Source of the DNA: a virus
Lineage: Duplodnaviria > Heunggongvirae > Uroviricota > Caudoviricetes
Direction: 5' to 3' (one strand)
Length of the DNA stretch: 64,000 nt
Virus record (IMG/VR): IMGVR_UViG_3300021363_000001
Span: 13,622-77,621 of that record
Under the pieces are notes generated by a model. It did not search any database. It was not told the origin of the DNA and saw only the letters and a list, made by a program, of their open reading frames with translations. Made by a program: the position numbers and the translations under genes. Shown one piece after another: positions 3,845-63,422 of the stretch; the stretch's first letter is position 1, and each line of letters starts with the position of its first letter.

Positions 3845-4702
3845 TTATAAAATCATGTTTGGTTTTGACTCATCCTTTCCGGGAGCTGCACTGGAAGGGA
3901 GGTTTGACAGAATAATGTGTGAGATCACTCTTGGAATTGTAGTGTAATCTTTAACGATTATAAGATTTTGGCCAAGCATTTCTTTCCATGCAGGATGCAC
4001 ATCTTCACGGCCACTTCTGTGGTCAAGGTGAATGTGATATACATGATTTAGCGCCTTGGCAGAGGAAAGTAATTGTTCGCGGGTATATGTTCCCTGGCCC
4101 ACAGCCGAAGTTCCCATGATTGATGAGAGCGCTGAAAGCGGGATTGAAGGCAGACAAGGCTCATCACCAATAGTGAACACAAATCCTTTTTGCTTACGTT
4201 TTTCAAATGCATCGGTCTTGATATGATTTCCCGCAAAATACCAGGCAAGCAAATAGCTTTCTCCAGCATTGCCGCCGCCATTTCCCTCAAGCCATGTTCT
4301 TGTCAACCACATATCAAGTTCTGCGTCTCCTGATTCGAACTGTCCTATTTGAAGTGGAGCCAGATCACATTCATGGTCGCCAATAGCACCAAACATTAAT
4401 GCTACGTCAGGAATTCCGTTCTGAAGAAATGAACTCATCAGTGTGGGTAGTCCATCTTTAATCATTAAGTGAGGAATACTACCCATGCTTCCGGTTACAT
4501 CCAGATACAGCTGTACTGGTATAGCGTTTGGATGTGTTGCAGAATCACGACATTCACGAAAGATAACTCCGGAAGGATTCATGTCTTGATGAATTTTCCG
4601 TGCTTTATTTTGTTTAAATATTTCATCTACAGGTGCAGTGAAATATGCGTCTTGTGTTGCTCTCATAGAGCGACTTGAAACTGAATATTCTGAGTGTCCC
4701 AT
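3845..4702 (-). CDS. von Willebrand factor A (vWA) domain protein
   Basis: LYLDVTGSM (DxSGS-like MIDAS motif) followed by alpha/beta pattern; 285 aa. Confidence 0.5.
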   Translation of the reverse strand: MGHSEYSVSSRSMRATQDAYFTAPVDEIFKQNKARKIHQDMNPSGVIFRECRDSATHPNAIPVQLYLDVTGSMGSIPHLMIKDGLPTLMSSFLQNGIPDVALMFGAIGDHECDLAPLQIGQFESGDAELDMWLTRTWLEGNGGGNAGESYLLAWYFAGNHIKTDAFEKRKQKGFVFTIGDEPCLPSIPLSALSSIMGTSAVGQGTYTREQLLSSAKALNHVYHIHLDHRSGREDVHPAWKEMLGQNLIIVKDYTTIPRVISHIILSNLPSSAAPGKDESKPNMIL

Positions 4703-24828: not shown

Positions 24829-25031
24829 GTTTTTTATTTTTTTGCTGTGCTATGCGAATGGCTTCTGCTTTGCTGGATGCCTTAACAAAATATTGAACAA
24901 ACCCTTTCTTGATGCGGGATAGCAAGCGCACGCGATAAATTTTCACAGTACATGCAAACCTAATTGTATCGCGTATGATAATCTATTATAAACGATACAA
25001 GTTTTGAACAGATTTGCATTTAAGGATATAA

Positions 25032-25541
25032 TTGATTTATATTTGCAGTATGCTACAGATCATTAAAGAATACAAAAACCTGGACAAGGCTCAGCTTTTT
25101 GGCCCAGGGCCATGGGTGAAGGAGGCTGATAAAATTCAGATGCTTCAGGTTGAAACGGATTTTGATTGTTTGATAGTTCGACATCCGCATAGTGGCCATT
25201 TGTGTGGATACGTTGGAGTTCCAGAGACGCATCCTTATTTTAAAAAAGGATATGATGAAATAGGGGTTGAGGTTCATGGCGGATTGACATTTGCCAATCT
25301 TTGTGCTCCGCATGGAAAAGAAGAAGAGAGCGTTTGTCATGTTCCGCTACCAGGCAGAAGCGACCAGGTTTGGTGGCTTGGATTTGACTGCGCTCATGCT
25401 GGAGATAAATCACCTATAGATAAAAAATATGGCTTTGATTATTCTCATGTATACCAGACCTATAAAACCATTGACTATGTAAAGGAAGAGATTGAGAAGT
25501 TGGCGCTTCAATTAAAAAAGATTTCGCAGCATGGAAACTGA
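25032..25541 (+). CDS. hypothetical His/Cys-rich conserved phage protein
   Basis: ORF 169 aa with HPHSGH...VHGGLTF...GFDCAHAGD pattern. Confidence 0.4.
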   Translation: MIYICSMLQIIKEYKNLDKAQLFGPGPWVKEADKIQMLQVETDFDCLIVRHPHSGHLCGYVGVPETHPYFKKGYDEIGVEVHGGLTFANLCAPHGKEEESVCHVPLPGRSDQVWWLGFDCAHAGDKSPIDKKYGFDYSHVYQTYKTIDYVKEEIEKLALQLKKISQHGN

Positions 25542-35400: not shown

Positions 35401-35702
35401 TTACACAAACAGGCGTTGGTGCGCCAGTTGATACTGTATTAGAAAACACACTGGGGGGAACCGTAGTGTGGGCTTATGTTGGGTCTGGCATTTATACAGC
35501 CACTCTTACAGGTGCCTTTACAGCAAACAAAACTGCTGTTTCAATATCTCAAACATCTTCAGCGCAAGGCACCGGATTTGTTGCTTATGCAGACTGGGTG
35601 AGTGCCAACGTGGTGAGTGTGGCTACTTATGATATAGCTGGCGCTGGCTCTGCTGATGATGTGCTCTTAAATAACTTATTCCAAATACAGGTTTACCCAT
35701 AA
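32457..35702 (+). CDS. collagen-like tail fiber protein (1081 aa)
   Basis: Two long tracts of uninterrupted G-X-Q triplets ([10 protein letters not shown]...) separated by a globular segment; C-terminal beta-rich domain. Confidence 0.75.
32560..34700 (+). repeat. nucleotide-level tandem GGN-NNN-CAR triplet repeats encoding collagen-like (G-X-Q)n
   Basis: Reiterated caaggnncncagggn units over about 0.8 kb and 0.9 kb tracts; a similar tract at 37670-37920 and 38270-38540 in the second fiber gene. Confidence 0.7.
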
Positions 35703-36090: not shown

Positions 36091-37332
36091 ATGGTAAGCT
36101 ACTTTACGCCTTTTCACAAGTCAACGATAGAATTTATTCAGCGATGCTATGCTTCCTTGTTAGCACAAGATAATCCAGATTGGGAATGGGTAATCGTGCG
36201 TAACGGAGAAGGCATTGATACAGACCTTTCCTTTTTAGATGCTGATGTGCGGGTAAGATTTTTTTACCACAGCGGCAAAGGAAATATCGGTGGATTAAAA
36301 AAGTTCGCGGTTTCAAAATGCGTGTCAGAGATTATTGCTGAGCTGGATTATGATGATGCGCTCACTCCAAACTGTACAGATAAATTAATTGAAGCGTTCG
36401 CTACCGGTTGTGATTTTGCATATTCTGATTGTTACGAATGCAAAGCTGACGGCACAACCTTCGCGCCATACGGAGCATACTACGGCTGGAGATATAAGAC
36501 TGAAGAAGATGGTAAGATCGTTACCCTGGCTCACGATCCATCACCGGCATCGCTGAGTTACATATGGTATGCGCCTAACCACATTCGTGCGTGGAAGAAA
36601 GAATTTTATGACAAGATCGGTGGGCATGACAGTACTCTTGAAGTAGCCGATGATTTTGATATTTGCTGCCGAACTTATATTTTTGGCACAATGGTTCATA
36701 TCAATGAACCATTGTATTACTACTACCACACAGGAGATAACACTTCAGGTCAAACCGCCAGTGACAACCGCAACGCAAAAATCCAGGAACTTACCCATGC
36801 GCTTCATGATAAGTACATACAGGATATTTGCATCCGCTGGTGCAGACTTAACAATTACTCTGCTCTTGATCTTGGCGGCAGGTTTAATTGTCCTGAAGGC
36901 TTTACTTCTGTTGATCTTCACGATGCTGAAGTCGTTATGGACTTACAACAGCCGTGGGACAAATTTTCGGACAACAGCGTAGGGGTAATCCGCGCATCGC
37001 ATTTACTTGAACACCTAAGCGACACCATTCATTTCATGAATGAAGCATACCGGGTATTAGTACCTGGTGGCTTCTTGCTCATTGAAGTCCCAAGCACAAC
37101 GGGCTCTGGTGCGTTCAGCGACCCTACTCATGTGAAGTTTTTTAACAAGCGCTCATTTGAGTATTACACAAACCAAAGTATAAGTCAGTATATACAGCCG
37201 CAGTATCGTGGACGGTTCCAGAAGAATCGTATCAACGAATATTTTTGGAAAAACTCTGACGTGGCTGTGATCCAGTGTCACATGATTGCATTAAAAGATG
37301 GGTATCATCCTATCGGAGAAAAATTGATGTAA
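36091..37332 (+). CDS. bifunctional family-2 glycosyltransferase / class I SAM-dependent methyltransferase
   Basis: N-terminal GT-A fold motifs (VIVRNGEG, ELDYDDA DxD); C-terminal MTase motifs (LLEHLSD...YRVLVPGGFLLIEVP). Confidence 0.7.
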   Translation: MVSYFTPFHKSTIEFIQRCYASLLAQDNPDWEWVIVRNGEGIDTDLSFLDADVRVRFFYHSGKGNIGGLKKFAVSKCVSEIIAELDYDDALTPNCTDKLIEAFATGCDFAYSDCYECKADGTTFAPYGAYYGWRYKTEEDGKIVTLAHDPSPASLSYIWYAPNHIRAWKKEFYDKIGGHDSTLEVADDFDICCRTYIFGTMVHINEPLYYYYHTGDNTSGQTASDNRNAKIQELTHALHDKYIQDICIRWCRLNNYSALDLGGRFNCPEGFTSVDLHDAEVVMDLQQPWDKFSDNSVGVIRASHLLEHLSDTIHFMNEAYRVLVPGGFLLIEVPSTTGSGAFSDPTHVKFFNKRSFEYYTNQSISQYIQPQYRGRFQKNRINEYFWKNSDVAVIQCHMIALKDGYHPIGEKLM

Positions 37333-37336
37333 TGAA

Positions 37337-39565
37337 ATGGCCACACGCACTGAAAATTTTGTTACAACTGGGAGCCCAGACAAACAAGTATTTGCTATCT
37401 ATGGAATCAAGGCCATTGATGTAGATACTCACACTCAGTATACCCAAGTTGCAACTCCATATGGCTCGGTCTGGCACCAGAGTGGCGTGTTCGCTTATGC
37501 AGACATTACTTTTTTTGGTGGCATTCCAGGAGTAGAAGACAGTATCGTTGTTGATCCGCTCAATGGAAAAATTCATTTCTCAGGCGATGTACTTGCTCCA
37601 GGGAATAATTATTACTACGGAACAAATGGCGCAGGAGTAAAAGGATATTATGTTCTTAGTGCGGGGCCGCAAGGCCCACAGGGATTTCAGGGAACGCAGG
37701 GTAGTCAAGGGCCGCAAGGAGCGCAGGGCAATCAGGGAACTCAAGGCCCACAAGGTTTCCAAGGGACACAAGGCTCAACCGGTGCGCAAGGGGCTCAGGG
37801 AGATCAAGGATTTCAAGGTGATCAGGGGTTTCAAGGAACAACTGGAGCACAAGGCCCACAGGGCGATCAAGGTGTTTCTGGCTCAACCGGGGCTCAGGGC
37901 CCACAAGGAGATCAGGGAACCAGCGGTGGCTTTTCTGATCTGTATCAATTTGCAACAGCTTTTTCTTCTCCAGCGGCAGGATTTTTAACTTTTAATTCTG
38001 GAAGCGCTTCAACAGCAACATCTATATCAATAAATGATATTGATGGGTATGCGCAAAACGCATTAGGAATATGGTCTTCTGTGGTTGCCGGAGACGTGCT
38101 TACTTTTTTTGAAAACGGGTCGGCTGGAAATCATGATTATTTTTTAGTAACAGGAACCTCACACTCAGTAGACCATACCGACCTTGCCGTTACCTACATC
38201 ACTGGTACCACAGGAACACCACCATATGCACTCTTAACATATATTACTGTTAGCATCTCCAAGGCTGGCGCAACCGGTGCGCAAGGAGCCCAAGGGACAC
38301 AAGGAGTGACAGGGGCGCAGGGCACGCAAGGATTTCAAGGAACACAAGGCACCCAGGGTTCTGCTGGAGCCCAGGGAAATCAAGGATTTCAGGGTACCCA
38401 AGGCGTTCAGGGGTCAACAGGTTCTACTGGCTCTCAAGGTACGCAAGGCTTTCAGGGAACGACCGGAACCCAAGGTACGCAAGGAGTGCAAGGCACCACT
38501 GGAGCCCAGGGATCACAAGGAAATCAGGGATTTCAGGGCACATCTCAGGTAGCGATGGTCTACTCCAACACTTCTGCTAGTTCAGCAATTACAGCCAATG
38601 GAGTAGAAACAACTTTCACGCAGCCCTCTTATACAATACCAGCAAACTCACTTATCGCCGGAAGCGTTATAAGAATAAAAGTTTATGGAGTATATACTAC
38701 TTCTGGACTCGCCCCGACCATTAATATAAAAGTAAAGCTGGGGGGAACAACCTATCTGGCTACAGGAGTGATTACAGCAGTAACAGGTGTTACAAATGGA
38801 GGATGGTGGGGTGATGCACAATTTACTGTTTATACTTCCGGGGCGTCAGGTACAATAGACGCGCAAGCATACGGAGAATTTTCTACAGCGATTACCACTG
38901 GGCTTTCTGTAAATATTCCTAACACTGGGACGCAGACTATTGATACTACAGCGGCACAGGCGGTTACATTAACAGCCACATGGGGACAAGCATCATGTTC
39001 TATCTCAATAAGAACAGTAGAAATATTTATTGACAACCTTTCTAATGCCGCTACAGCAGGAACTTTTCTTCAAATAGCAAATAATTTATCTGACCTTAAT
39101 AACACCACAACTGCAAAAACAAATCTTGGAATTATTGTAAAAGCGATGACCTCTGACCAAGGCGGCATAACATCAACTTCATACGCCGATATAACAGGAT
39201 TCTCTTTTGCTATTGCCGCTAACGAAACATGGATTATTGACGCCAAATTCAGAATCACTACTTCTTCAACAAATGGAGCAAGACTATCACTTAATCTACC
39301 AACTGGATGTACCATGCTAGTTCAGGTGGATGGTAACGCATCATCAGCTACTAATTGGGCGCAACAGGAATCTCAAATAACTACTTCTGATGCTGATCCA
39401 GCTCAAATATGTACCGTCATCTGTACCGATGGACGGGGTTTGGTATGGGGCGTAATAACCAATGGCTCTACCGCAGGGACAGTTCAAATGAGAGTCCGAA
39501 CCCAAAATGCTGCCAACACTGTCGCTCTCAAAGGTGGCTCAACTATGCTTGCGCATAGAATATAA
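37337..39565 (+). CDS. collagen-like tail fiber protein (742 aa)
   Basis: Two tracts of G-X-Q/G-X-Y triplets ([13 protein letters not shown]...) flanking a globular domain; C-terminal beta-rich domain. Confidence 0.7.
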   Translation: MATRTENFVTTGSPDKQVFAIYGIKAIDVDTHTQYTQVATPYGSVWHQSGVFAYADITFFGGIPGVEDSIVVDPLNGKIHFSGDVLAPGNNYYYGTNGAGVKGYYVLSAGPQGPQGFQGTQGSQGPQGAQGNQGTQGPQGFQGTQGSTGAQGAQGDQGFQGDQGFQGTTGAQGPQGDQGVSGSTGAQGPQGDQGTSGGFSDLYQFATAFSSPAAGFLTFNSGSASTATSISINDIDGYAQNALGIWSSVVAGDVLTFFENGSAGNHDYFLVTGTSHSVDHTDLAVTYITGTTGTPPYALLTYITVSISKAGATGAQGAQGTQGVTGAQGTQGFQGTQGTQGSAGAQGNQGFQGTQGVQGSTGSTGSQGTQGFQGTTGTQGTQGVQGTTGAQGSQGNQGFQGTSQVAMVYSNTSASSAITANGVETTFTQPSYTIPANSLIAGSVIRIKVYGVYTTSGLAPTINIKVKLGGTTYLATGVITAVTGVTNGGWWGDAQFTVYTSGASGTIDAQAYGEFSTAITTGLSVNIPNTGTQTIDTTAAQAVTLTATWGQASCSISIRTVEIFIDNLSNAATAGTFLQIANNLSDLNNTTTAKTNLGIIVKAMTSDQGGITSTSYADITGFSFAIAANETWIIDAKFRITTSSTNGARLSLNLPTGCTMLVQVDGNASSATNWAQQESQITTSDADPAQICTVICTDGRGLVWGVITNGSTAGTVQMRVRTQNAANTVALKGGSTMLAHRI

Positions 39566-42310: not shown

Positions 42311-42362
42311 TTAAAGATTTATTGCGGGAGCAAATATATACTAATTATAAACCAACACAAAT

Positions 42363-44797: not shown

Positions 44798-44893
44798 TGT
44801 ACTGTTTTGTACTACATTTGAGATAATCAAGTACAAAAAAACACAGCGATCTGCGTATGCAAATATAAAGCAAATATATACCAAGTACAAACC
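44798..44893. promoter_or_regulatory. divergent promoter/operator region with repeated AGTACAAA half-sites
   Basis: ttttgtact (44805-44813), agtacaaaa (44830-44838), agtacaaacc (44884-44893) between repressor and first early gene. Confidence 0.4.
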
Positions 44894-49131: not shown

Positions 49132-49451
49132 CCCCTGAAAAAAAAGAATCACAGATGTATTTCCGCATGCTCATGTTCCTTGTGCTATTTACAGAATGTG
49201 AAAAGTGGGGCCTTGCAATGAAGGGTTCTGTAGATAAAGAGATGAAGATGCGCCTGAACAATTATTTATTCGCACAAGGCAAACTTGCTGATGCCTGTAA
49301 AAAATTTGTTGACCCGGATGTGATGGAAGAATTCGCTGAGCGCTTCAGCCGTGTGGTTGAAAAGCTAATTGAGTCACCAGTTGAAAAACGTGACGAACTG
49401 CTAGAGCTGATCAGGGCCTGGGCCAGCGGAGAAATTAATATCGTTGAATAA
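49128..49451 (+). CDS. hypothetical small protein
   Basis: ORF 107 aa. Confidence 0.35.
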   Translation: MTPEKKESQMYFRMLMFLVLFTECEKWGLAMKGSVDKEMKMRLNNYLFAQGKLADACKKFVDPDVMEEFAERFSRVVEKLIESPVEKRDELLELIRAWASGEINIVE

Positions 49452-51327
49452 CCATACCAAAAAACCAAAACAAATGAAACAACACATCTTACTATTACTA
49501 ATGCATCCAGCCCTGATTATAGGAATCTGGGTTGGGATTATTTTACTTCTTCTATTGACTGCCAAATCCATTCTTGGAATTGTATTCATCAGAGAGAATG
49601 AAACCGGCATTGTCACAAAAAAGTTTGTCCTGTTCGGGGAGAACAAAAATTTACCCGAAGGAAGAATTATCGCAACTAAAGGCGAGGCCGGCTATCAAGC
49701 GCGCATGCTTCCGCCAGGAGTACATTTCTGGAGATGGTTCTGGCAGTACAAAGTTGACAAGATAAAATTTACTGTGATCGAAGAGGGACAAATGGGGCTG
49801 ATCGAAGCACAAGACGGGAATCCTCTTGATCCAGGACACATCACAGCAAAGACCGTTGAGTGTGATAAGTTCCAGGACGCTGAAACATTTTTAAATAACG
49901 GTGGACAGAAAGGGGTGCAGCGCGCATATCTCACTCCAGGTTTGTACCGAATCAACACAGCGCTCTTTAAGCTAACCATCTGCAGCATCCTTACAGTGCC
50001 AAATGATAAAGTTGGTATTGTAACAATACTTGATGGTAAGCCGCTGGCCAAAGATGAAATTGCAGGCAAGATCATTCCTGAGCATGGCAACTTTCAAAAC
50101 GCAGATGCATTTATTCAAGGCGGCGGTAGCCGTGGCCTGCAAGAGCAAATACTTCTTGCCGGTAAATGGTTTATCAATCCGTGGTTTGCTACAGTACAGG
50201 TAGCTGACATGACAATGATCCCTGTTGGATTTGTCGGTGTTGTGGTTTCGTATGTTGGAGACAGCGGTGTTGATACCAGTGGTGAAACATTCAAGCACGG
50301 CAATATTGTGGATAGGGGCCAGAAGGGTGTGTGGAAGCAAACGCTTGATCCAGGAAAATACGCAATCAACACAGCGATCATGAGCGTAACACCGGTTCCA
50401 ACAACAAACATTGTTTTGAACTGGGCAACAGCGCGCAGTGAAGCACACAAGCTGGATGAAAAACTCTCTACCATAAAGGTGAGATCATCTGACGGCTTCA
50501 CATTCAACATGGATGTGGCGCAGATCATTAACATCTCAAACCTGGCAGCACCAAAAGTGATAGCGCGTTTTGGAAACGTACAGAACCTGGTTTCTCAAGT
50601 GCTGGAGCCTACCATCGGAAACTACTTCCGTAACTCAGCACAGAAATCAGATGTGATTGATTTTTTAAGGGAGCGCAGTATCCGTCAGGACGAGGCAAAA
50701 GCCAGGATCAAAGAAGTGCTTTCGGAATACGATGTGGTTGCTGTTGATACGCTCATTGGTGACATCGTGCCGCCTGATGAGTTAATGAAGACGCTCACTG
50801 ATCGCAAGATCGCAGAACAGCAGAAGCTCACCTTCGAACGCCAGGAGATGGCACAGGTACAGCGTAAAAGTTTTGAAGCAGCAGAAGCCTCAGCCAATAT
50901 GCAAGCTCAGGTTGTTCAGGCTGAGCGTAACGTTGAGATCGCAGAAAAAATTGCTGATGCAAAAATTAAAACAGCCAGTGGTGATGCGAAATCCAAAACA
51001 ATCAATGCCGAAGCTGACGCAACAGTGACAACCACCGTTGCAAAGGCAGATGCCCAGGCAGCACAAGTGAAAGGATTTGCAGCAGCGGAGGTCACACAAA
51101 AAGTTGGTGACGCTGAGGCAAGCGTATTGAAAAAGAAAACTGAAGCTATCGGAGCGTTGCCGTATGCGCAGATGCAGATTGCTGATAGCTTGGCAAAAAA
51201 CAAAATTAAATTAGTCCCTGAAGTTTTAGTCAGTGGTGAGCGCAATAGCAATGGGGTGCTGGATGCGCTATTGGCCACTGAGTTTTTTAAGAGCGCAAGA
51301 ACAGAAGTTAAATCAGACCAAAAATAA
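49444..51327 (+). CDS. SPFH/band-7 flotillin-like membrane protein (YqiK-like)
   Basis: N-terminal TM helices then SPFH-like core; C-terminal Ala/Glu/Gln-rich flotillin-type coiled coil (AEQQKL...AEADATV...AQAAQVKG...). Confidence 0.6.
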   Translation: MNNHTKKPKQMKQHILLLLMHPALIIGIWVGIILLLLLTAKSILGIVFIRENETGIVTKKFVLFGENKNLPEGRIIATKGEAGYQARMLPPGVHFWRWFWQYKVDKIKFTVIEEGQMGLIEAQDGNPLDPGHITAKTVECDKFQDAETFLNNGGQKGVQRAYLTPGLYRINTALFKLTICSILTVPNDKVGIVTILDGKPLAKDEIAGKIIPEHGNFQNADAFIQGGGSRGLQEQILLAGKWFINPWFATVQVADMTMIPVGFVGVVVSYVGDSGVDTSGETFKHGNIVDRGQKGVWKQTLDPGKYAINTAIMSVTPVPTTNIVLNWATARSEAHKLDEKLSTIKVRSSDGFTFNMDVAQIINISNLAAPKVIARFGNVQNLVSQVLEPTIGNYFRNSAQKSDVIDFLRERSIRQDEAKARIKEVLSEYDVVAVDTLIGDIVPPDELMKTLTDRKIAEQQKLTFERQEMAQVQRKSFEAAEASANMQAQVVQAERNVEIAEKIADAKIKTASGDAKSKTINAEADATVTTTVAKADAQAAQVKGFAAAEVTQKVGDAEASVLKKKTEAIGALPYAQMQIADSLAKNKIKLVPEVLVSGERNSNGVLDALLATEFFKSARTEVKSDQK

Positions 51328-55560: not shown

Positions 55561-55854
55561 ATGGAAAATAAAGAAGAATTATGGCGTGTTCTCAACGGAG
55601 AAGTTAATATTCAAGAACGCTTAAAAATTTTAGGGGTTGAGCAAATTCCATTAGAAATTGACTTTCAAGATGCACATATCATAGAATTTGTATTGAGAAA
55701 AGTAGCATATGAAAAACTTTTAAAGATGGGCGAAATTTCTGATAGTGAAATCTTCAGCATAGGAGGCCATACCCCTGCAGTGCATGGAGACTTTGGCTTT
55801 AAAGGCGAAAGTGTTTACCGTTTCACACATGGGGAATGGAAGTTTGCATATTAA
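55561..55854 (+). CDS. hypothetical protein
   Basis: ORF 97 aa. Confidence 0.35.
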   Translation: MENKEELWRVLNGEVNIQERLKILGVEQIPLEIDFQDAHIIEFVLRKVAYEKLLKMGEISDSEIFSIGGHTPAVHGDFGFKGESVYRFTHGEWKFAY

Positions 55855-55910
55855 AAATCTTACATTTGCACCCGCCAGTCATTCTTCATAGATCGGCTTA
55901 TTAGTGTTTC

Positions 55911-55943
55911 AAGGCGTCCCTCATCAGGACGCTTTGTTTTTTT
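55911..55943 (+). terminator. rho-independent terminator
   Basis: Hairpin ggcgtcc-ctcatca-ggacgc followed by tttgttttttt. Confidence 0.55.
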
Positions 55944-56023
55944 AGATATATCTTTCATGTATTGTAATTAATAATTAGTTTGTATTATTGCACAGTACAA
56001 AATAATACATTCTTCCCCACAAG

Positions 56024-56608
56024 ATGAATCAATTCGAATTGTCAGTTGTGATTTCACAAATGATTGTTGTCGGTGTAGTTGCCATTGGAGCGCTATTGCG
56101 CCTGTATCTGGCCAGGAATGAAAGATGGTATCAGCTACAGGTGCAGAAAAAAATGAATGTCATTAGGGTCATATTAGAATATTGTTATTTCATTTTTGTT
56201 ATTGGAAATGTTTTAACCAACGCTCAGGCATATTACCTCAGTGGTAGTACATTTGATTTATTGCTGATCGGAGTCAATCTTTTTATTATCGTTTTCTGGA
56301 TTCACATTGGCTTTATGCGGCCTTGGGAGCACATCAGAATAAAGCCATTTGAATACAAGGCCAAGCGGTATAATATCATGGTGGTTTCACGCATGCGCGA
56401 CATACCACGCAGGATTGATCTCTCGCTGTATCCAGGTGACATGCGCATGCATTACTGCGATGACTGCGGAGCCAGGGTTGTATTTGATAATGTTGACTAT
56501 GATAATTTCGTTGCAAAGGCAAACTTTGAAAACCACTTACGCATGATATGTACAAAATGTGTTAGTACAAAAAGCATCTATAGAAAAATAGCTATTCAGT
56601 CTAATTAA
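56024..56608 (+). CDS. integral membrane protein with C-terminal Cys cluster
   Basis: 194 aa; four predicted TM helices then CDDCG...CTKC. Confidence 0.45.
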   Translation: MNQFELSVVISQMIVVGVVAIGALLRLYLARNERWYQLQVQKKMNVIRVILEYCYFIFVIGNVLTNAQAYYLSGSTFDLLLIGVNLFIIVFWIHIGFMRPWEHIRIKPFEYKAKRYNIMVVSRMRDIPRRIDLSLYPGDMRMHYCDDCGARVVFDNVDYDNFVAKANFENHLRMICTKCVSTKSIYRKIAIQSN

Positions 56609-56628
56609 TAATTTTAAAAACCAATATT

Positions 56629-57279
56629 ATGAATCAACAAGAAAATGAATTAACCTACACGCACGTAGATGAAGCGGAAGCTCCTGGTGAGACTATACGT
56701 AAAGCCTGGACTCAGGAAGAACTAGCTGATCTCAAGCGAGTATTAGAAAACAATCCAGATGACACCAATGCTGCCATTCAGATTCACGCGCGTAATTATG
56801 CTCGTAAACCAGAGACCGTATTTTCAAAGGCGCACAACATGAGGCACCTGGCAAAAAAGAAAAAGGAGAAAAAGAAACTGGCGAAGGTTCCCAGTAAGCG
56901 GACGATTGTAAGAAAAAAAAATATTCAAGTACCGTATACGCATCAAGAGGAGGTGGAAATATTAGAAACTTTGAGAGATACCACCTCACGGAAAAAGGAC
57001 TTGAAGATGCTGAGTAAAAAACTGGGCCGCAATGAAGCATCTATTGCATCTAAATATCATGTGCTAAAATATCATGGATATAAAGCTGTGCCTACATCCG
57101 TACCGAGAGAGCTGGACGCTAAAGTGCGCAATGCCATTATGAATTCTACGCCTGTTGCACATCCAATGTCTACCAAAGTAAAAGTTGACGTGGATGACTC
57201 TGGCGTTACCATTACCTACAACCCGGAGATGTTCAACTTCTCCTTCCAGGAGGGACTTATTAAAGTAATCCGAAAGTAG
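56629..57279 (+). CDS. hypothetical protein
   Basis: ORF 216 aa, Lys-rich middle. Confidence 0.4.
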   Translation: MNQQENELTYTHVDEAEAPGETIRKAWTQEELADLKRVLENNPDDTNAAIQIHARNYARKPETVFSKAHNMRHLAKKKKEKKKLAKVPSKRTIVRKKNIQVPYTHQEEVEILETLRDTTSRKKDLKMLSKKLGRNEASIASKYHVLKYHGYKAVPTSVPRELDAKVRNAIMNSTPVAHPMSTKVKVDVDDSGVTITYNPEMFNFSFQEGLIKVIRK

Positions 57280-57291
57280 TAACAACCGGAC

Positions 57292-57327
57292 AAAAAAAAG
57301 GGAGCTTATTCAGCTCCCTTTTTTTTT
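57292..57327. terminator. bidirectional terminator between convergent genes
   Basis: A8-gggagcttattcagctccc-T9. Confidence 0.65.
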
Positions 57328-57337
57328 GGTAAAATCA

Positions 57338-57712
57338 CTACTTGGCTTTAATTAATTTGAACCACAGCTTTTCTTCCTGGACAACTCCTTCGCCTAAATA
57401 GTATTTTCCGACTTCAAGTCCGTCTTGGCGTAACTTTTTTGGAATAGAACACTGGTATGCTGGGAATTTCGGATCGGTGGCATCTGCTAGGCGTAATGGA
57501 ATTGTGTACTTATCCTCTATAGCAGGGTCAGAAAAGCAAATAACAAATTGATAAGTGTCTTCATTCATATTAATTTCCAGACCAGCTTTATCGGTGATAC
57601 CGACATGCTTTGCTGCAAATCGAGAGACGTTCAGTACATTTGGCCCAACACGTATATAAGGAGCTTGATTATTTTGGGTACCACTTTTCTTGATTACTTT
57701 TTTTAATTTCAT
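57338..57712 (-). CDS. hypothetical early protein
   Basis: ORF 124 aa, last gene of minus-strand early operon. Confidence 0.4.
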   Translation of the reverse strand: MKLKKVIKKSGTQNNQAPYIRVGPNVLNVSRFAAKHVGITDKAGLEINMNEDTYQFVICFSDPAIEDKYTIPLRLADATDPKFPAYQCSIPKKLRQDGLEVGKYYLGEGVVQEEKLWFKLIKAK

Positions 57713-58203
57713 GCTTCGGGTGCTTTTTTGTTGCGCGTAAATGGCCTAGTTTCTTTTTGTAGCGATGGCTTTAGAAGATCAACCCCATCGTTTAGAATTT
57801 TTTCAATTACATAGTGACCTCTCTGATGTTCAATACAGAATTCTTTACAATTTATACTCAGTGATTTCTGTAATTGGCTGCTTTTTTTATTAATAGCGAA
57901 AGACTGTTCGTCTTTTGTTAATTCTATTACCCAGTTATTGGGGGCTGCCTCATCTTCAATTTCGTGTAATAGAACAGGATCGCCTTCTTTGATATTAAAT
58001 AGTTCACACGCTAATTGATTAAATGATATTTGTGATCCAGATAATGAAAGCATTGGCATTACTGCTGATCGGCGAGAGCTTTCATAGGTTTTGCGGAGAT
58101 ATTTTTTTAGCTTCATAAATTTTGGTTTAGTGTTTAAATAACTTATTGAAAATTGACTTATTCTCTTTATCAATGTAATGATGCTGCTCAATAACCTTCT
58201 CAA
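57709..58203 (-). CDS. hypothetical early protein
   Basis: ORF 164 aa. Confidence 0.4.
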   Translation of the reverse strand: MRRLLSSIITLIKRISQFSISYLNTKPKFMKLKKYLRKTYESSRRSAVMPMLSLSGSQISFNQLACELFNIKEGDPVLLHEIEDEAAPNNWVIELTKDEQSFAINKKSSQLQKSLSINCKEFCIEHQRGHYVIEKILNDGVDLLKPSLQKETRPFTRNKKAPEA

Positions 58204-58227
58204 CCTCCACCGTAACCACTCCTGGGG

Positions 58228-58956
58228 CTACAGGCGCAGGGAGTAGCGATATGGCATCTTCTGCCATAGAGGATAAGTTCGTTGTAAATAGGTGTGTAAT
58301 GCGTGATTTACAGCTACAACAATTTGAGGAACCATTGCTTTAAGTATAGCTTCGATCTTACTGTAGTCAATCTCTGGTACAGGTAGTAGATTGGGTCTAC
58401 TGGAAACAACACTCACGGTTTGTTTTACAATATCTTCAATTTTAGTGTAGTCAATTTTTTCTGGTTCCGGTAAATGATATTTAAGTGTTTCCAAAAACTC
58501 ATTCATATTGAATCCAATAGGCGCAATAGGATCAATAACCACCAACTGCTTTTCTTTTTTCTGGTTTTCATGATGCGTAATATCTTCCAACAGCTTTTCA
58601 ACCATCTTCATATTAGGATCAATAGTGTTCCAGTAGTACTGTCGTTTGGTTGAACCGTGCGACATTTCAGTTAGCATGTGCCGTTCAATAAGAATCTTTG
58701 TAGCCAAGGGAGAAACACGATGCTTACTTTTTAACTCAGCAAGTATCAATACTCCCGGCACAGTTGGTGTTTTTGTTTTCTCCTGCAACTCTTTTAAGAA
58801 TGCCAAATAGCGGTGATGCTTTGTCTTGTATTTATCGGTGTACTGAATAGAGTTCAATACTGGTGTCAACTCATCCATAGATGAATATGTATCTTCTCTG
58901 CTTTTGCGCTGCACGGTAAGTCGTGGATAACGCTTTAATTTTAATTCTCCCATCAT
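58228..58956 (-). CDS. hypothetical early protein
   Basis: ORF 242 aa. Confidence 0.45.
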   Translation of the reverse strand: MMGELKLKRYPRLTVQRKSREDTYSSMDELTPVLNSIQYTDKYKTKHHRYLAFLKELQEKTKTPTVPGVLILAELKSKHRVSPLATKILIERHMLTEMSHGSTKRQYYWNTIDPNMKMVEKLLEDITHHENQKKEKQLVVIDPIAPIGFNMNEFLETLKYHLPEPEKIDYTKIEDIVKQTVSVVSSRPNLLPVPEIDYSKIEAILKAMVPQIVVAVNHALHTYLQRTYPLWQKMPYRYSLRL

Positions 58957-59244
58957 TTAAGGTTTATAAACATTTGATTTATTAAATTCGATCCAGTCAT
59001 GTAATTCATCAAACAGACGTTGCAGTGAAAAAAAATAGCGCGGGAATCCATCAGCACCATCTATGGTCATGATGGGTTCTTTCCCGCGCATAGTTTCAAC
59101 TAGGACTCCGTAGTGTCCCCGATCACAGTAGCCAGGACGCTTGGTTATTGTTATCAGGACGTTTGGCATTTCAATATCCAGCCATGATTCGCGCTGGATG
59201 CAACTCAGTCCGTAGGTGTTTATTCCAGTAAGATCAATGCCCAT
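58957..59244 (-). CDS. hypothetical early protein
   Basis: ORF 95 aa. Confidence 0.35.
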   Translation of the reverse strand: MGIDLTGINTYGLSCIQRESWLDIEMPNVLITITKRPGYCDRGHYGVLVETMRGKEPIMTIDGADGFPRYFFSLQRLFDELHDWIEFNKSNVYKP

Positions 59245-59306
59245 GAAGGCAAAAGTAATAGTTTATATTTAATTATCAAAGTTAATCATATTAGTACAAC
59301 TTTGCT

Positions 59307-59534
59307 TTATAACAGGACTACCATCTGCTTATAAGGATGAATTGAAATGGGATCAGAGGTATAGCGGACAATCACATTTCCGTCCGCGCGGTATACCTTA
59401 TAGAAAATATGCCCGTTGCCTATTTGCAAACTCTGTACGTCTTTATCATTGATGGTAAATGGCTCAGGGGAAGGGAAACAGATAAATTTTCCCTTTACAA
59501 CGGCTGACAGCAATTTGTGGATTTTTTTATTCAT
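59307..59534 (-). CDS. hypothetical early protein
   Basis: ORF 75 aa. Confidence 0.3.
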   Translation of the reverse strand: MNKKIHKLLSAVVKGKFICFPSPEPFTINDKDVQSLQIGNGHIFYKVYRADGNVIVRYTSDPISIHPYKQMVVLL

Positions 59535-59583
59535 AGTTAATTATGGTTTATTAATAAGTATCAAGTAAATTAAGTAAAAAAAA

Positions 59584-59799
59584 TTAGGTCTTCTTCTGTG
59601 GTAATGCCGGGAATTCAGAGATGTCTATAAACATGACATTCTCAATCTTGACAACCCTGAGTCTTTCGGCAATAATTAATTGGTGAATGTAAGACGGCGT
59701 AACGCCATTGTTCCTGGCAAAGGAGGATATACTTCGCAGGTCATCTAAGTTGAAACTTTTGCGCGTATTCCTTCTGCGGGTCTTTGTTTGGTCTTGCAT
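59584..59799 (-). CDS. small DNA-binding-like protein
   Basis: 71 aa, basic N-terminus and HTH-like segment. Confidence 0.3.
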   Translation of the reverse strand: MQDQTKTRRRNTRKSFNLDDLRSISSFARNNGVTPSYIHQLIIAERLRVVKIENVMFIDISEFPALPQKKT

Positions 59800-59900
59800 A
59801 TAAACGGGTTTGTGTGCAAATATAAATTAAATTATAAACCAACCAAATAGGATTGTACTATTTTGTATCGGGTGGGTAACCCTGGACTGCCTACCCTGGA

Positions 59901-60086
59901 TTAGTTCAGCTTATGTTTTGAGATGTAAAATTTTTCCTCTAAATATTGCAGCATGTACTTTGCGTAATCGGTCATGTAGTCATTCCCCTCAAAGGTGAAT
60001 GACTTGTCCCCGTTACGCGCAGCCTTGTCGTATTCCTTACGCAGGCGCTTCACTTTGGCAGCATCGAATTCAATGTGTTCGGTCAT
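59901..60086 (-). CDS. hypothetical small protein
   Basis: ORF 61 aa. Confidence 0.3.
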   Translation of the reverse strand: MTEHIEFDAAKVKRLRKEYDKAARNGDKSFTFEGNDYMTDYAKYMLQYLEEKFYISKHKLN

Positions 60087-60089
60087 GAT

Positions 60090-60305
60090 TTAAACTCCGC
60101 TTTGAATGCAAGCCATTATTGCGCCCATCACCAGTTCCGGCTCATCTGCCCATTCCTGTTGATCGTAATACAATAATTCATTACCGTTTTCATCTTCGAA
60201 TCTCACGTAGTCTACTCCCTTTGGATTCTGTTTTACGGAAGGGAAAATTAAAAATTGCTTGCCTCCTGCAATGGGGATTTTAATTTCATCATTGGTCTTT
60301 GCCAT
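60090..60305 (-). CDS. hypothetical small protein
   Basis: ORF 71 aa. Confidence 0.3.
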   Translation of the reverse strand: MAKTNDEIKIPIAGGKQFLIFPSVKQNPKGVDYVRFEDENGNELLYYDQQEWADEPELVMGAIMACIQSGV

Positions 60306-60367
60306 AACATTTTTATTTAATTGGTTAATACCCCATTGCGGGGTTTCGTCTACCGAAGACTCATCAG

Positions 60368-60838
60368 TTAACCTTCAATGTAAATGATTCGCAGGTATGC
60401 CGCATCTGCGCTTGCACACAATTCATGCAGCCAGTTCAATTCTTCTATTAATTCTTTTGGGCCGTCTTCAGCGTCCACTAGCAGTTCATCTACAGAATAC
60501 AGGTGTTCGGTTAATACCGTATCTCTGTAAGTTGTCTCCATTGTAGACTCAATGTGCTTGATTGTGTTTTCCGAAATACGCCTGTGATACACGTCACAAA
60601 TTTTAATCACATCATTGGGCGTCATCTTTGAATCAACTTTTGAATTTAGAAATGCCTCCATCAACTCATACTCATTCTTTGTTGAATCGCCTGGGATTGC
60701 GTTAAACTCATCGAACAATGCAACGCGCTTTTCAAATAAGTTGTCATACTCCGTTTTTGGGGTGTAGCACACATCAGCCAGTTTGTTGAATAGGAAAAAT
60801 CTGTAGTTGAATCTTTCCAGTGATAAATTTTCTTTCAT
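60368..60838 (-). CDS. hypothetical early protein
   Basis: ORF 156 aa preceded by conserved intergenic module. Confidence 0.4.
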   Translation of the reverse strand: MKENLSLERFNYRFFLFNKLADVCYTPKTEYDNLFEKRVALFDEFNAIPGDSTKNEYELMEAFLNSKVDSKMTPNDVIKICDVYHRRISENTIKHIESTMETTYRDTVLTEHLYSVDELLVDAEDGPKELIEELNWLHELCASADAAYLRIIYIEG

Positions 60839-60886
60839 AAGATATTATTATTAGTAGTTTACTGGCATCTCTGCCAGTCATCACAT

Positions 60887-61123
60887 TTACGGTAAATCAT
60901 AGCCGACCCGATACGTATTTTGTCGCGGGGAATCTGTTTCCATTACTTCTGCCTCACCTAACTCATCGGCATCAACAAGAGAATCTAAATTTTCATATTC
61001 TTCGTCTGTAAATTGGTCTTTAGTTGTGATTGTTACATATCTCCCGTTATTGTTCACTGTGCAGTGAGGGAAGGCTGCCCTTGCCAGTCGCGCAAGGATT
61101 GCGCATGCTTCATTTTGAGTCAT
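60887..61123 (-). CDS. hypothetical small protein
   Basis: ORF 78 aa. Confidence 0.3.
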   Translation of the reverse strand: MTQNEACAILARLARAAFPHCTVNNNGRYVTITTKDQFTDEEYENLDSLVDADELGEAEVMETDSPRQNTYRVGYDLP

Positions 61124-61361
61124 TGGAATTTGGGTTTTGATTGTTTAATAAATTGTATTCGTCTTCTGTGATAATTGCGAACGCCTCAGGAATAACTGCA
61201 TCTGATAGTAAACGTAATGCCTCATCAAGGTCGGGCTTTGTATTAAATACGTATGCGTGAAGCGTCATGTCATCGGGCTGGCCAATGTCTACCCCGGCAA
61301 TACCGTCACGCTCGTATACGCTGACCGCATTGAAGCCGGACATGATAAATAATTTGTGCAT
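61110..61361 (-). CDS. hypothetical small protein
   Basis: ORF 83 aa preceded by conserved module. Confidence 0.35.
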   Translation of the reverse strand: MHKLFIMSGFNAVSVYERDGIAGVDIGQPDDMTLHAYVFNTKPDLDEALRLLSDAVIPEAFAIITEDEYNLLNNQNPNSNDSK

Positions 61362-61458
61362 TGCTATTAGTATTTAGTTTGTTTAGCCAGGAGTATTTAC
61401 CTCCTGGGACTCACAATTTATAATAAGCGGACTTGTGACCGCTAAACACTAACAGTAT

Positions 61459-61674
61459 TTATTCTTTCAATGATTTTAAAACAAGTCGTCCCGCATTGGT
61501 TTTGTTAGGCTGTCCATTTGTTGTCCAGCTGGGCCATTTAACCATTGGGCCAACTATCCGGATGCGATAATGATTCTCGTCTTTGTCCCAACTATATTTA
61601 ACCACGTAATATTGGGCGTTTCCTTTCTTACTTTTAATGAAATGGAATTCCATTGATGCATGTATGAATTTCAT
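61459..61674 (-). CDS. hypothetical small protein
   Basis: ORF 71 aa. Confidence 0.3.
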   Translation of the reverse strand: MKFIHASMEFHFIKSKKGNAQYYVVKYSWDKDENHYRIRIVGPMVKWPSWTTNGQPNKTNAGRLVLKSLKE

Positions 61675-61693
61675 AGCAAGTTTTATTAGTAAT

Positions 61694-61888
61694 TTAATTT
61701 AGTTCAACTTCGGGGTGTTGAATAGGGTTAGTAATTAAATTCACATAGCTATCAGCCAGTTCAGCCATTGTTATTAACTGGCTGGTTGCGGTCTTGCGCG
61801 CCGTAGCGTTTGTGCTGGTGATTAACATGAGGCATACTTGTAATGCCTGTACCCAACTCATGGTTAGGTCAATCGTTGTTTCTTTCAT
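61694..61888 (-). CDS. hypothetical small protein
   Basis: ORF 64 aa preceded by conserved module. Confidence 0.3.
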   Translation of the reverse strand: MKETTIDLTMSWVQALQVCLMLITSTNATARKTATSQLITMAELADSYVNLITNPIQHPEVELN

Positions 61889-61943
61889 AGTAAATATTTA
61901 TTAGTGTTTTATTGTTGCGGGAAAAACGCTCCCGCAACAATCA

Positions 61944-62300
61944 TCAAACTGCATAGCGTAACTGTTCCACCTCTGAGGAATCAAACCCTTCGGGGTGTTT
62001 AGCAATGAAGGGAATGAGATAACCGTACACTTCATGCTTTCTAAATGAAATGGCAAACCCATAACCCTGCGCTACCTTTAGAAAGTACTTTTTCAATGCT
62101 TTCAATTCTGCCTTAGCTTCACTACTGAGTAGGTTAGGGTTAACTTGGTGGTACTCTGGCTGAGATGCGTATTCAATCTCCTGAAAGTATTTTAGTAAAT
62201 TGATAATTTCAAATTCACCAGTTTTGCCGTACTGGTGTAATGCTGAATCTTCGTGCCTGTGCCAACTGGCGCAGACTTGTTTTGCTTGTTGCTTATTCAT
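61944..62300 (-). CDS. hypothetical early protein
   Basis: ORF 118 aa. Confidence 0.35.
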   Translation of the reverse strand: MNKQQAKQVCASWHRHEDSALHQYGKTGEFEIINLLKYFQEIEYASQPEYHQVNPNLLSSEAKAELKALKKYFLKVAQGYGFAISFRKHEVYGYLIPFIAKHPEGFDSSEVEQLRYAV

Positions 62301-62542
62301 TTCTCAACCCTTTCCAATTCATTAGTAACAGGATTGAAATAACGTTCAGTTAATCCAACTTTGCGCCCGTTGTGGTCTGTCATTGGTTGGGAAATGTAAA
62401 TGCGTCCGTCTTTCTGTTTCTTCATGCTGAATTTTCCCATAGTTTGGTGAAAGAATTTCAGCGTTTTGCGAGTAAAGAAATGCGGTGAAGTTGATTCTGT
62501 TAATCTCGCAATGTCATAGATTGTTAATCGTTCTTTTTTCAT
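62297..62542 (-). CDS. hypothetical small protein
   Basis: ORF 81 aa preceded by conserved module. Confidence 0.35.
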   Translation of the reverse strand: MKKERLTIYDIARLTESTSPHFFTRKTLKFFHQTMGKFSMKKQKDGRIYISQPMTDHNGRKVGLTERYFNPVTNELERVEK

Positions 62543-62603
62543 AGGAAATAATTTGTTAGTAGTTTACAACAGACTTGCGCCTGTTGTCATCACATTTTTT
62601 TGC

Positions 62604-63008
62604 TTACTGGCATTCCTCCCATATCTTTTCAATGGTTTCCTGTGGAATGTTTAACTTCTCAAACCTTGCAGCCTGTTTAATACATTCTTTATGTATTTTT
62701 TCGGCTGTCCGGCTGTCTGAATCGTAACCCAATTCGCTGCAAAAACTTTCAAATGACTCTTTACCCATTCTTGCATCCGACTCAAAGCAATACAAGGCAA
62801 ATTTTAGGTTATCATCATCCAATTCAGTTTTTCCTTGCTGCCAGTCGTTATGGCTGCCATGATATTTGAATGATGTTTTCTTTCCTTCGTGTTGTACTGT
62901 CACCCTGAATACGTTGCAGTACATTGTTTGACCTTTACCTGATTGATTTTTTTGTTCTGCGCCATCTTCAATGAGTTTGGCAGTAACTGTAATGTTGTAG
63001 AATTTCAT
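62604..63008 (-). CDS. hypothetical early protein
   Basis: ORF 134 aa preceded by conserved module. Confidence 0.4.
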   Translation of the reverse strand: MKFYNITVTAKLIEDGAEQKNQSGKGQTMYCNVFRVTVQHEGKKTSFKYHGSHNDWQQGKTELDDDNLKFALYCFESDARMGKESFESFCSELGYDSDSRTAEKIHKECIKQAARFEKLNIPQETIEKIWEECQ

Positions 63009-63422
63009 AGGATTTAATTTATTAGTGTTTTACATACCTGCATAAAGCAGGCATGTCATCAAGCTATTATCAGGACTTTGAACCTATAACAATTTTACCT
63101 TTGAAAACCTCAGTGCTATTTGCATCCTTTCGGTATCGGCTTGGGTTCTTCACGAATCGACAAGTATTTATTTATGCACTTGTCCGCTTCTCCAATGGGT
63201 TCCGACTCCCACCTGATACTCATTTATGAATCAGGCTGCAAGTATACGGTCATTACTACATACTTGTCAAGTTTATAGTAGATATATAATTGCTTTATAT
63301 TCAGTGAATTGTAGGCACATCTTTTCTGAAAGCCTTATGTATTAAGGGTTTCCAGCCTAATGAAAGTATTTGTTAGTTAGTTGATTGTCAGGGACAAAAC
63401 TATATATTGTACCTAAAATATG

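Follow-up and report, generated by a model that had tools for sequence, protein, structure and literature searches.

Recurrent intergenic modules of a crAss-like phage probably represent the core of a type-P3 twister ribozyme

The small minus-strand genes near the end of a crAss-like phage sequence are separated by a recurrent, hairpin-bearing module. The sequence, a stretch of 64,000 nucleotides (nt) from the IMG/VR virus record IMGVR_UViG_3300021363_000001 (positions 13,622 to 77,621 of that record), is referred to here as the window, and its assignment to the crAss-like phages comes from a crAss_MUZ muzzle domain (Pfam). Judged from its sequence, this module between the cistrons of the small-gene block probably corresponds to the 3′ two-thirds of a type-P3 twister, a self-cleaving ribozyme whose conserved core it comprises. 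Two copies (W63 and W61) are complete twisters, three others (M62600, M61945 and M60886) are without the P4 domain, and a type-I hammerhead ribozyme is found at a further junction of the same block.

Five minus-strand junctions between positions 55500 and 64000 share one layout, with the downstream ATGs at 63008, 62542, 61888, 61361 and 60838. On the minus strand the order is (U/G)U-GAUGA, a perfect hairpin, (G/A/C)-UAAA-(C/A)(U/C/A)-AC-UAA(U/C/A)A and the AUG; GAGU takes the place of GAUGA in one of the five. A sequence-only reading of the window had listed five such copies, and our reading of the junctions bears it out. Its copy at 61363-61410 is a real module, though with GAGU instead of the claimed GAUGA, and with CUAAACAAACUAAAUAC. 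The hairpins are mutually unrelated in sequence and perfect in pairing, with loops of 4-7 nt and a measured length of 16-29 nt, not the 15-23 nt first proposed. The repeat is also enriched over shuffled sequence: the 15-mer GTAAAMYACTAAYAA, with two mismatches or fewer, has seven matches in the window (1.0 expected), a count reached by none of 100 shuffles; all but one of them are minus-strand matches at 55.9-63.0 kb.

The module was identified as a twister because the 3′ part of the Rfam consensus for this class, uuguGAGgAc-hairpin-UAAacaaACuaaauua, equals the module as previously noted. In this assignment GAUGA is the internal-loop strand of pseudoknot T1, the hairpin corresponds to P1, and the U/A of GUAAA is the predicted cleavage step; the next 3-4 nt form the 3′ strand of P2, AC is T2, and UAAUAA is the 3′ strand of P3. 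The repeat is real but had been drawn too short, since two of the copies extend about 35 nt further upstream through a P3a strand, a P4 hairpin and a junction. Their elements are as follows.

W63, complete type-P3 twister: 63018-63093, minus strand (Rfam RF03154 in sensitive mode, and model R1)
W63, upstream part: P3a 63093-63087; P4 63086-63071 with loop UUCAAAGU; then the junction; P2a G[c]UU; minus strand
W63, central part: GAUGA 63060-63056; P1 hairpin 63055-63033; predicted cleavage U63032/A63031; minus strand
W63, downstream part: P2b AAC; T2 strand AC 63026-63025; P3b 63024-63018; minus strand
W61, complete type-P3 twister: 61370-61449, minus strand, predicted cleavage U61385/A61384
W61, helices: P3 GUGUUUA/UAAAUAC; P4 GCGG-UCACAAGU-CCGC; P2 UUGU/ACAA; P1 CCAGGAG/CUCCUGG

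The helices P1, P2, P3 (with open ends) and P4 form in both W63 and W61. The P4 loops, UUCAAAGU and UCACAAGU respectively, pair with the T1 and T2 strands: T1 is UGA:UCA in W63 and GU:AC in W61, whereas the two share AC:GU as T2. Each is predicted to cut itself at the U/A step. In the search with RF03154, W61 scored 47.7 bits, which exceeds the gathering score of 39.9, and W63 scored 35.5 bits (E 1.4e-4, sensitive mode). We also searched the window, with filters off, using R1, a covariance model made from six IMG/VR twisters (collected from the contigs L087, L098, L103, L104 and L113) and containing no window sequence. Both were matched over the full length, W63 at 44.0 bits (E 5e-9) and W61 at 38.4 bits (E 1.6e-7).

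Covariation was evaluated in a model-based alignment of 11 twisters, to which T1 and T2, absent from the search model, were added by hand as pseudoknots. In this alignment 94.3% of the cells are paired, compared to 65% in shuffles, and 21 of the 26 pairs show changes on both sides, which 0 of 500 shuffles reach. Every helix is 88-98% paired and has changes on both sides. T1 is 96.7% paired, with two of its three pairs covarying (UGA:UCA, GU:AC, GgA:UcC), and T2 (AC:GU) is invariant and 100% paired. The stems covary while their sequences differ entirely; what is kept is therefore an RNA structure and not a DNA site.

A hammerhead missing from the earlier list of copies stands upstream of the gene at 60090-60305.

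Type-I hammerhead: 60316-60374, minus strand, GGUUAA-CUGAUGAG-UCUUCGGUAGA-CGAAAC-CCCGCAAUGGGG-UA/UUAACC-AAUUAAA, predicted cleavage A60329/U60328

The criteria for a hammerhead were C3-U4-G5-A6-U7-G8-A9, G12-A13-A14, the A15.1-U16.1 pair, H17 and three stems. The core in the window is complete (CUGAUGA...GAAA...UA), and stems I, II and III comprise 6, 4 and 6 base pairs (bp), stem I being open. R2, a model built from 11 hammerheads of other contigs, scored it at 70.3 bits (E 1.9e-12); pairing in the alignment of the family reaches 97.8%, and stems II and III covary. This hammerhead would do the same job as the complete twisters at another junction. The UAA of its stem I is the stop codon of the upstream gene, as it is in L081, a contig of 963 nt that is the only moderately close relative (its protein is 48% identical to the 134-amino-acid (aa) product of the window). 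Each of the two genes of L081 is preceded by a hammerhead, and another one starts right after the homologue of the 134-aa protein. The hammerhead junctions that flank this homologue are the ones that in the window hold a twister and a P4-less module. Mixed arrays of twisters and hammerheads are common among the viral contigs that we fetched: three twisters and two hammerheads lie within 5.3 kb of L113, and L087 has one twister with three to four hammerheads. L094 holds four hammerheads and L093 three.

The hammerheads of these contigs form a subfamily with a near-invariant AGGUUAAC...GUAUUAACCAAUUAAA, arrayed before start codons in L087, L088, L089, L093, L094, L095, L113 and L081. None of its members in the IMG/VR and Logan contigs is reported at the Rfam gathering threshold, and their leaders measure 21-24 nt. 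In many copies loop II (UUUAAU or UUAAU) is the complement of the tail AAUUAAA, a relation that suggests a pseudoknot. In the hammerhead at 1-145 of L081, stem III is enlarged by about 80 inserted nt (GCUACACA...UGUGUAGC), and the model sees this copy as two partial matches. A separate element, GAAGGCGGCUACUCGUGAUGAGCAGUCGCCUUCGACAUUAAAACACUAACAA followed by ACUUAUG, holds a hammerhead-like UGAUGAG and recurs in L004, L005, L008, L012, L022 and about 15 more loci (IMG/VR sample 3300045988).

The three remaining modules keep the twister core and are without P4.

M62600: 62553-62596, minus strand, A[u]GU-GAUGA-C-AACAG GCGCAAGU CUGUU-G-UAA-ACU-AC-UAACAA, cleavage-homologous site U62566/A62565
M61945, P4-less or P4-divergent: 61898-61950, minus strand, G[u]UU-GAUGA-U-11 bp hairpin-A-UAA-AAC-AC-UAAUAA, homologous site U61911/A61910
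M60886: 60847-60900, minus strand, GU-GAUGA-CUGGCA GAGA UGCCAG-UAA-ACU-AC-UAAUAAU, homologous site U60861/A60860

P1, P2, the internal-loop bases, the UAA site, AC and P3b are retained in each, and the core bases are those of W63. P2 covaries among W63 and these modules (G[c]UU/AAC, G[u]UU/AAC, A[u]GU/ACU). Their stems are perfect, 6-11 bp long and unrelated in sequence, with z scores of -3.5 to -5.2. With R1, M60886 scored 21.8 bits (E 0.003), the P4 positions being deleted in the alignment; it keeps a P3a-like AUGAUUU and the junction GUAAAU, and ACC replaces the 16-position P4 hairpin. M62600 gave a core-only local match at 62562-62593 (14.2 bits, E 0.33), and M61945 scored 8.2 bits with 23 nt standing at the P4 positions. 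The stop codon of the gene upstream of M61945 is the UGA in UUUGAUGA. Only two P4-type loops occur in the region. No consistent cis substitute for P4 was found for the three modules among UCA..GU loops within 250 nt on either side, and M62600 has no UCA..GU partner at all in that range. M61945 has a non-canonical candidate, UUCC-UCAGAGGU-GGAA at 61980-61965, which breaks the invariant A before GU and leaves a 15-nt junction. No Rfam family, RAGATH families included, matched any of the three at E <= 10. From this sequence evidence, the P4-less modules are most likely twister derivatives unable to cleave alone. Their perfect stems, W63-like core, P2 covarying with the flank type and spacing of 22-23 nt argue for continued selection over neutral decay; what is selected could be, for instance, a hairpin plus leader that acts in RNA processing or stability.

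Two P4 look-alikes in the region were rejected. The hairpin AGGCA-UUACAAGU-(A)UGCCU, at 61848-61830 on the minus strand inside a 64-aa gene, has a loop identical to the W61 P4 loop at seven of eight positions; about one such hairpin is expected by chance, so the resemblance is probably coincidence. The P1 loop of M62600 (GCGCAAGU, 62577-62572, minus strand) holds CAAGU, the conserved P4-loop motif, probably also by chance, and in the known twister fold it cannot reach the active site. Readings of the modules as something other than twisters were discarded as well: a hammerhead, as UAAA stands in place of GAAA and G in place of C3 and stem III is missing; and a C/D box or kink-turn built on GUGAUGA, as there is no D box.

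The distance between the cleavage step and the start codon is nearly constant. From predicted cleavage to AUG it is 23, 23 and 23 nt in the two twisters and the hammerhead, and from the homologous site it is 23, 22 and 22 nt in the P4-less modules. The 5-12 nt proposed earlier between motif and ATG is thus better replaced by the U/A step as the point from which the spacing is constant. The leaders, and one leader-only copy that had been missed, are listed below.

Leader of 23 nt after W63: 63009-63031, minus strand (read from the sequence)
Leader of 23 nt, M62600 equivalent: 62543-62565, minus strand
Leader of 22 nt, M61945 equivalent: 61889-61910, minus strand
Leader of 23 nt after W61: 61362-61384, minus strand
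Leader of 22 nt, M60886 equivalent: 60839-60860, minus strand
Leader of 23 nt after the hammerhead: 60306-60328, minus strand
Leader-only copy: 61675-61697, minus strand, UAAAUUACUAAUAAAACUUGCU-AUG, with no hairpin and no ribozyme, overlapping the upstream stop codon

The leaders are 78-87% A+U and almost free of G, and their 3′ halves differ in sequence. The segments from -23 to +20 have minimum free energies of 0 to -2.4 kcal/mol and are essentially unfolded. In 17 of 19 other hammerheads the distance from cleavage to AUG is 21-24 nt; for twisters in other phages it ranges from 15 to 40 nt. What the sequences show directly is family membership in sequence and structure, covariation and spacing. 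Ribozyme 3′ tails (UAUUAACCAAUUAA..., ACUAAUAA...) also stand directly before ATGs with no ribozyme in L085, L086, L090, L091, L092 and L097, and likewise at about 4240-4271 and at 6885-6913 of L087, in addition to 61675-61697 of the window. Such ribozyme-free leaders may be independent units, or remnants of ribozymes that were lost.

We infer the following course for cleavage in the infected cell and for its consequences in the stability and translation of the mRNAs. The polycistronic RNA would cut itself, co- or post-transcriptionally, 22-23 nt upstream of the next AUG. The upstream fragment would retain nearly the whole ribozyme and end in a stable hairpin (P1 or stem III) with a 2′,3′-cyclic phosphate, and the downstream mRNA would begin with a 5′-OH and a short, G-poor, unstructured, A/U-rich leader. 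Such a leader would suit a host of the Bacteroidota, where initiation does not rest on Shine-Dalgarno pairing. The outcome would be insulated mRNAs of one or a few genes, with defined ends and a fixed context for initiation. The twister type P3 and hammerhead type I permutations both leave a short single strand only on the downstream mRNA. Two options raised in the sequence-only reading are touched by this scheme. Its RNase-processing or attenuation cassette comes closest, in that the modules do look like intercistronic RNA-processing cassettes, except that in the two twisters and the hammerhead the cut is predicted to be made by the RNA itself; at the three P4-less copies an RNase or another partner may act. 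Of its translational coupling element, the link to initiation is suggested by the 22-23 nt, G-poor, unstructured leader, but the arrangement is not classical coupling.

We weighed four other explanations against a twister-derived module. The modules could be phage-specific hairpin promoters for a virion-packaged RNA polymerase, as in phage N4, with transcripts starting a few bases before each gene. The crAss-like phages do carry a virion RNA polymerase (PMC10136315). The hairpins stand directly before genes, and the host -7 motif is missing: as the sequence-only reading had correctly stated, the sigma-A pattern (-33 TTTG, -7 TAnnTTTG) matches none of the modules. Yet every conserved base coincides with a core position of the type-P3 twister consensus, and the stems covary and keep their pairing through complete changes of sequence. 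Two copies also continue upstream with a P4 domain, the loop of which is complementary to the sequences on either side of the hairpin, something that a promoter does not need, and a hammerhead occupies equivalent junctions in the window (60374-60316) and in L081. Promoters of phage N4 have stems of 5-7 bp and loops of 3 nt, unlike the 16-29 nt hairpins with 4-7 nt loops found here. The promoter interpretation, which the sequence-only reading had offered as an option, is so improbable that we reject it. A different proposal is that the ribozymes and what is left of them serve mainly as linkers for recombination or as selfish cassettes, their conserved sequences at gene boundaries allowing small genes to be exchanged between phages, with cleavage incidental and the P4-less copies as scars. 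Stem I of the hammerhead plus its tail (GGUUAAC...UUAACCAAUUAAA) is almost invariant across unrelated contigs, although pairing alone would suffice; homologous genes in two phages are flanked by different ribozyme classes; leaders remain where the ribozyme is lost; P4 is cleanly excised in M60886; and the genes flanked vary between arrays (PMC3088659). The intact catalytic cores and covarying stems, however, indicate selection on an RNA fold, and the constant spacing to the AUG with divergent leader sequence points to a function at the RNA level. We regard the linker explanation as unlikely, and it and the ribozyme reading are not mutually exclusive.

The other two explanations concern chiefly the P4-less copies. 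In bacterial mRNA decay, typical signals for processing and stability between cistrons consist of a stable hairpin and, after it, a single-stranded A/U-rich stretch. The selected unit may be the hairpin plus the A/U-rich leader, which an endonuclease of the host (RNase E/G or Y type) or an RNA-binding protein of the phage would recognize; twister ancestry would be irrelevant now. The three P4-less copies keep perfect, unrelated stems of 6-11 bp between identical flanks, which argues for selection without catalysis. This leaves unexplained why the T1 (GAUGA) and T2 (AC) strands are intact despite the missing partner; no candidate protein was identified, and the complete copies have the full catalytic fold. 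We hold this account tentatively, as possible but not the favored one for the modules as a whole. A further proposal is that the P4-less modules are active ribozymes completed by an unrecognized partner, which could be the P3a-P4 domain of W63 acting in trans or, in cis, some non-canonical element of the coding sequence upstream. In all three modules P3b, T1 and T2 are complementary to the W63 P3a (UUGUUA) and P4 loop; the UAACAA of M62600 turns a G.U pair of W63 into G-C; P2 covaries among W63 and the modules, all three of which retain the distance of 22-23 nt; where M62600 stands, a relative carries a complete hammerhead; and the loop UCAGAGGU of the hairpin upstream of M61945 is suitably complementary. 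Copies of W63 would, however, show such complementarity in any case if that is what the modules are, and the P4 loop of W63 remains tethered to its own T1 strand after self-cleavage. M62600 is without a cis candidate within 250 nt, and the candidate of M61945 suffers from the broken A and long junction described above. No natural split twister is known, and searches by the Weinberg group for new twister permutations found none (PMC10085705). Completion by a hidden partner is accordingly improbable. The stronger formulation, that the P4-less modules are a functional and undescribed twister derivative (either the substrate part of a natural split ribozyme, for which the P3a-P4 domain released from W63 would supply the rest in trans, or a minimal cassette cleaved or bound by a dedicated partner), is just as doubtful; if true, one catalytic domain or factor would process several operon junctions, each a fixed 22-23 nt before a start codon. 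For these three copies, a hairpin-plus-leader processing or stability element is most likely, recombination scars come second, and a split or trans-completed ribozyme has a low probability.

Several observations weigh against the twister and hammerhead assignment preferred here. W63 falls under the Rfam gathering cutoff, and the window hammerhead fails every Rfam hammerhead cutoff: its best match, RAGATH-1-hammerhead, gives 20.1 bits where 56.3 are required, and Hammerhead_3 gives 13.2 where the cutoff is 48.5. Loop II of this hammerhead (UCGGU) is not complementary to the tail AAUUAAA, whereas L081 and several IMG/VR copies have the complement; it is thus without the loop II-tail pseudoknot of its relatives and may be slow. 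Three of the five modules have neither P4 nor a cis partner for T1 and T2, which makes the term self-cleaving ribozyme unfit for most of the copies listed at the outset. The same leaders occur with no ribozyme at 61697 of the window and in several IMG/VR contigs, so that the leader may be the selected unit and the ribozymes dispensable. Host-type promoter motifs at 59817-59847 and 59250-59280 lie inside the block, in its downstream part, so the block may not be one transcription unit; its status as early and as a single transcript is an assumption. The lineage has no close database relatives.

Compared to the type-P3 twister class of Roth et al. 2014 (RF03154), W63 and W61 agree in all points: P1-P4, an open P3, T1/T2, the U/A step and the GAGgA, UAA, AC and AAGU positions. 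The window differs from the class in the copy that scores below the Rfam threshold, in the three copies that have lost P4, in a W63-type P2 of only 3 bp with a bulged nucleotide, and in the fixed distance of 22-23 nt from the start codon. Hammerheads are known to flank genes in prophages, and one stands 13 nt before a start codon in the haloviruses HF1/HF2; Perreault et al. 2011 proposed that phage hammerheads process long transcripts into gene-length mRNAs (PMC3088659). The hammerhead described here resembles those type-I copies of phages and prophages, and HHphage of HF1/HF2, in flanking single genes or short blocks, the HHphage copy lying in an early polycistronic transcript (PMC3088659). 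It differs from them in its stem I (GGUUAA/UUAACC), which hardly varies and includes the stop codon of the upstream gene, in the 21-24 nt leader of its subfamily, in being interchangeable with twisters at the same junctions and in being missed by the Rfam thresholds. Twisters and hammerheads are known to cluster together and near phage genes (PMC10085705; PMC6765202). The RAGATH motifs and neighborhoods behind pistol, hatchet and twister-sister (Weinberg et al. 2015/2017, in PMC10085705) likewise bring several ribozyme classes and unexplained conserved RNAs together near phage-type genes, and RAGATH-1-hammerhead is the best Rfam match of the window hammerhead; the P4-less modules, by contrast, match no RAGATH family (E <= 10) and are recognizably twister-derived. 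Synthetic insulators of the RiboJ type, inserted ahead of the ribosome-binding site and after a promoter or cistron, also cleave themselves just before the translation start, strip variable upstream RNA and leave a defined short leader, but they are engineered, whereas the arrangement in the window is natural, arrayed and made of two ribozyme classes. The promoter-early stem-loop (PeSL) cassettes of T4-type phages are repeated stem-loops with a motif between small early genes and are thought to aid gene shuffling. PeSLs, however, are terminator-plus-promoter DNA signals, and the conserved parts in the window are ribozyme cores with no promoter consensus.

Promoter and terminator signals were mapped around the block. 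The Bacteroidetes-type pattern TTTG-N17-23-TAnnTTTG occurs nine times in the window (3.06 expected), including these sites.

TTTG...TAnnTTTG motif: 59817-59847, minus strand
TTTG...TAnnTTTG motif: 42331-42361, minus strand
TTTG...TAnnTTTG motif: 44860-44891, minus strand
TTTG...TAnnTTTG motif: 25013-25045, plus strand
TTTG...TAnnTTTG motif: 59250-59280, minus strand
Intrinsic terminator of the gene 55561-55854: 55910-55936 followed by a T-run, plus strand

Of these sites, 59817 and 42331 have almost the same sequence (TTTG.TTGGTTTATAATT...TATATTTG). Three further copies of the module claimed in the sequence-only reading dissolve here. The degenerate one at 59245-59306 has neither GAUGA nor hairpin and fits the Bacteroidetes promoter TTTG-N-TAnnTTTG at 59250-59280; the one at 59535-59583 is merely an A/U-rich leader; and the plus-strand copy at 55897-55932 reads ACTAATAA on the minus strand, its hairpin being the plus-strand intrinsic terminator, with no gene after it. 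Intrinsic terminators were called at none of the modules, and nearby only at plus-strand 55910-55936 and at weak other sites. Upstream of W63 lies a 414-nt gap with no long open reading frame (63094-63422, minus strand). It contains the best sigma-70-like match of the region, TTGACA-18-TATACT at 63270-63241, and TAGTTTTG at 63402-63395; an open reading frame of 35 aa (63116-63223, minus strand) ends 22 nt before W63. The 300-nt leader upstream of W63 showed no unusual structure (z = -0.84). A perfect palindrome of A-run, hairpin and T-run at 57292-57326 (AAAAAAAAGGGAGCTGAATAAGCTCCCTTTTTTTT) separates the minus-strand block from the convergent plus-strand gene 56629-57279 and probably terminates transcription in both directions.

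A 77.6-kb ENA contig holds the identical phage and continues the block of small minus-strand genes for about 7.5 kb past the window; the 9 kb searched there contained no further ribozymes (Rfam, E <= 10), nor did the module region contain other ribozyme classes at that threshold. The variant contigs L079 and L080 are identical to the window and thus offer no polymorphisms to exploit. Megablast of the region against GenBank phages gave no match, and tblastn against phages gave only remote matches in proteobacterial phages. The exact module pattern has 77 loci in IMG/VR, essentially all of them chance A/T-rich matches. A search for related loci with the 134-aa and 156-aa proteins found nothing. 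In protein searches the former retrieved the same phage plus four distant or short contigs only, and the latter only the phage itself. Elsewhere in the window, an array of 15-16 tRNA genes on both strands occupies 22-1920 (the tRNA at 597-666 is seen by Rfam and not by ARAGORN), with no HDV-like or other ribozyme in it (Rfam, E <= 1). Plus-strand genes encode two large collagen-repeat proteins (32457-35702 and 37337-39565), an SPFH/Band 7 protein (49444-51327) and a glycosyltransferase-methyltransferase fusion (36091-37332), according to Pfam.

Reviews state only that small self-cleaving ribozymes in bacteria and phages may process polycistronic transcripts (PMC6765202), and we found no published report of small ribozymes in crAss-like phages. 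The window thus presents known ribozyme families in a new host lineage, together with a spacing rule and P4-less derivatives that are unexplained. Two ribozyme classes appear to be interchangeable at the gene junctions of a crAss-like phage, and a hammerhead subfamily that is common in viral contigs escapes the Rfam thresholds. In the P4-less derivatives we would be seeing either ribozymes in the course of decay or a new way of using them. Annotators should label such conserved intergenic motifs in the small-gene blocks of crAss-like phages as ribozymes and not as promoters. We hypothesize that the ribozymes are natural operon insulators, which would set the ends and leaders of mRNAs in hosts whose initiation does not depend on Shine-Dalgarno pairing.

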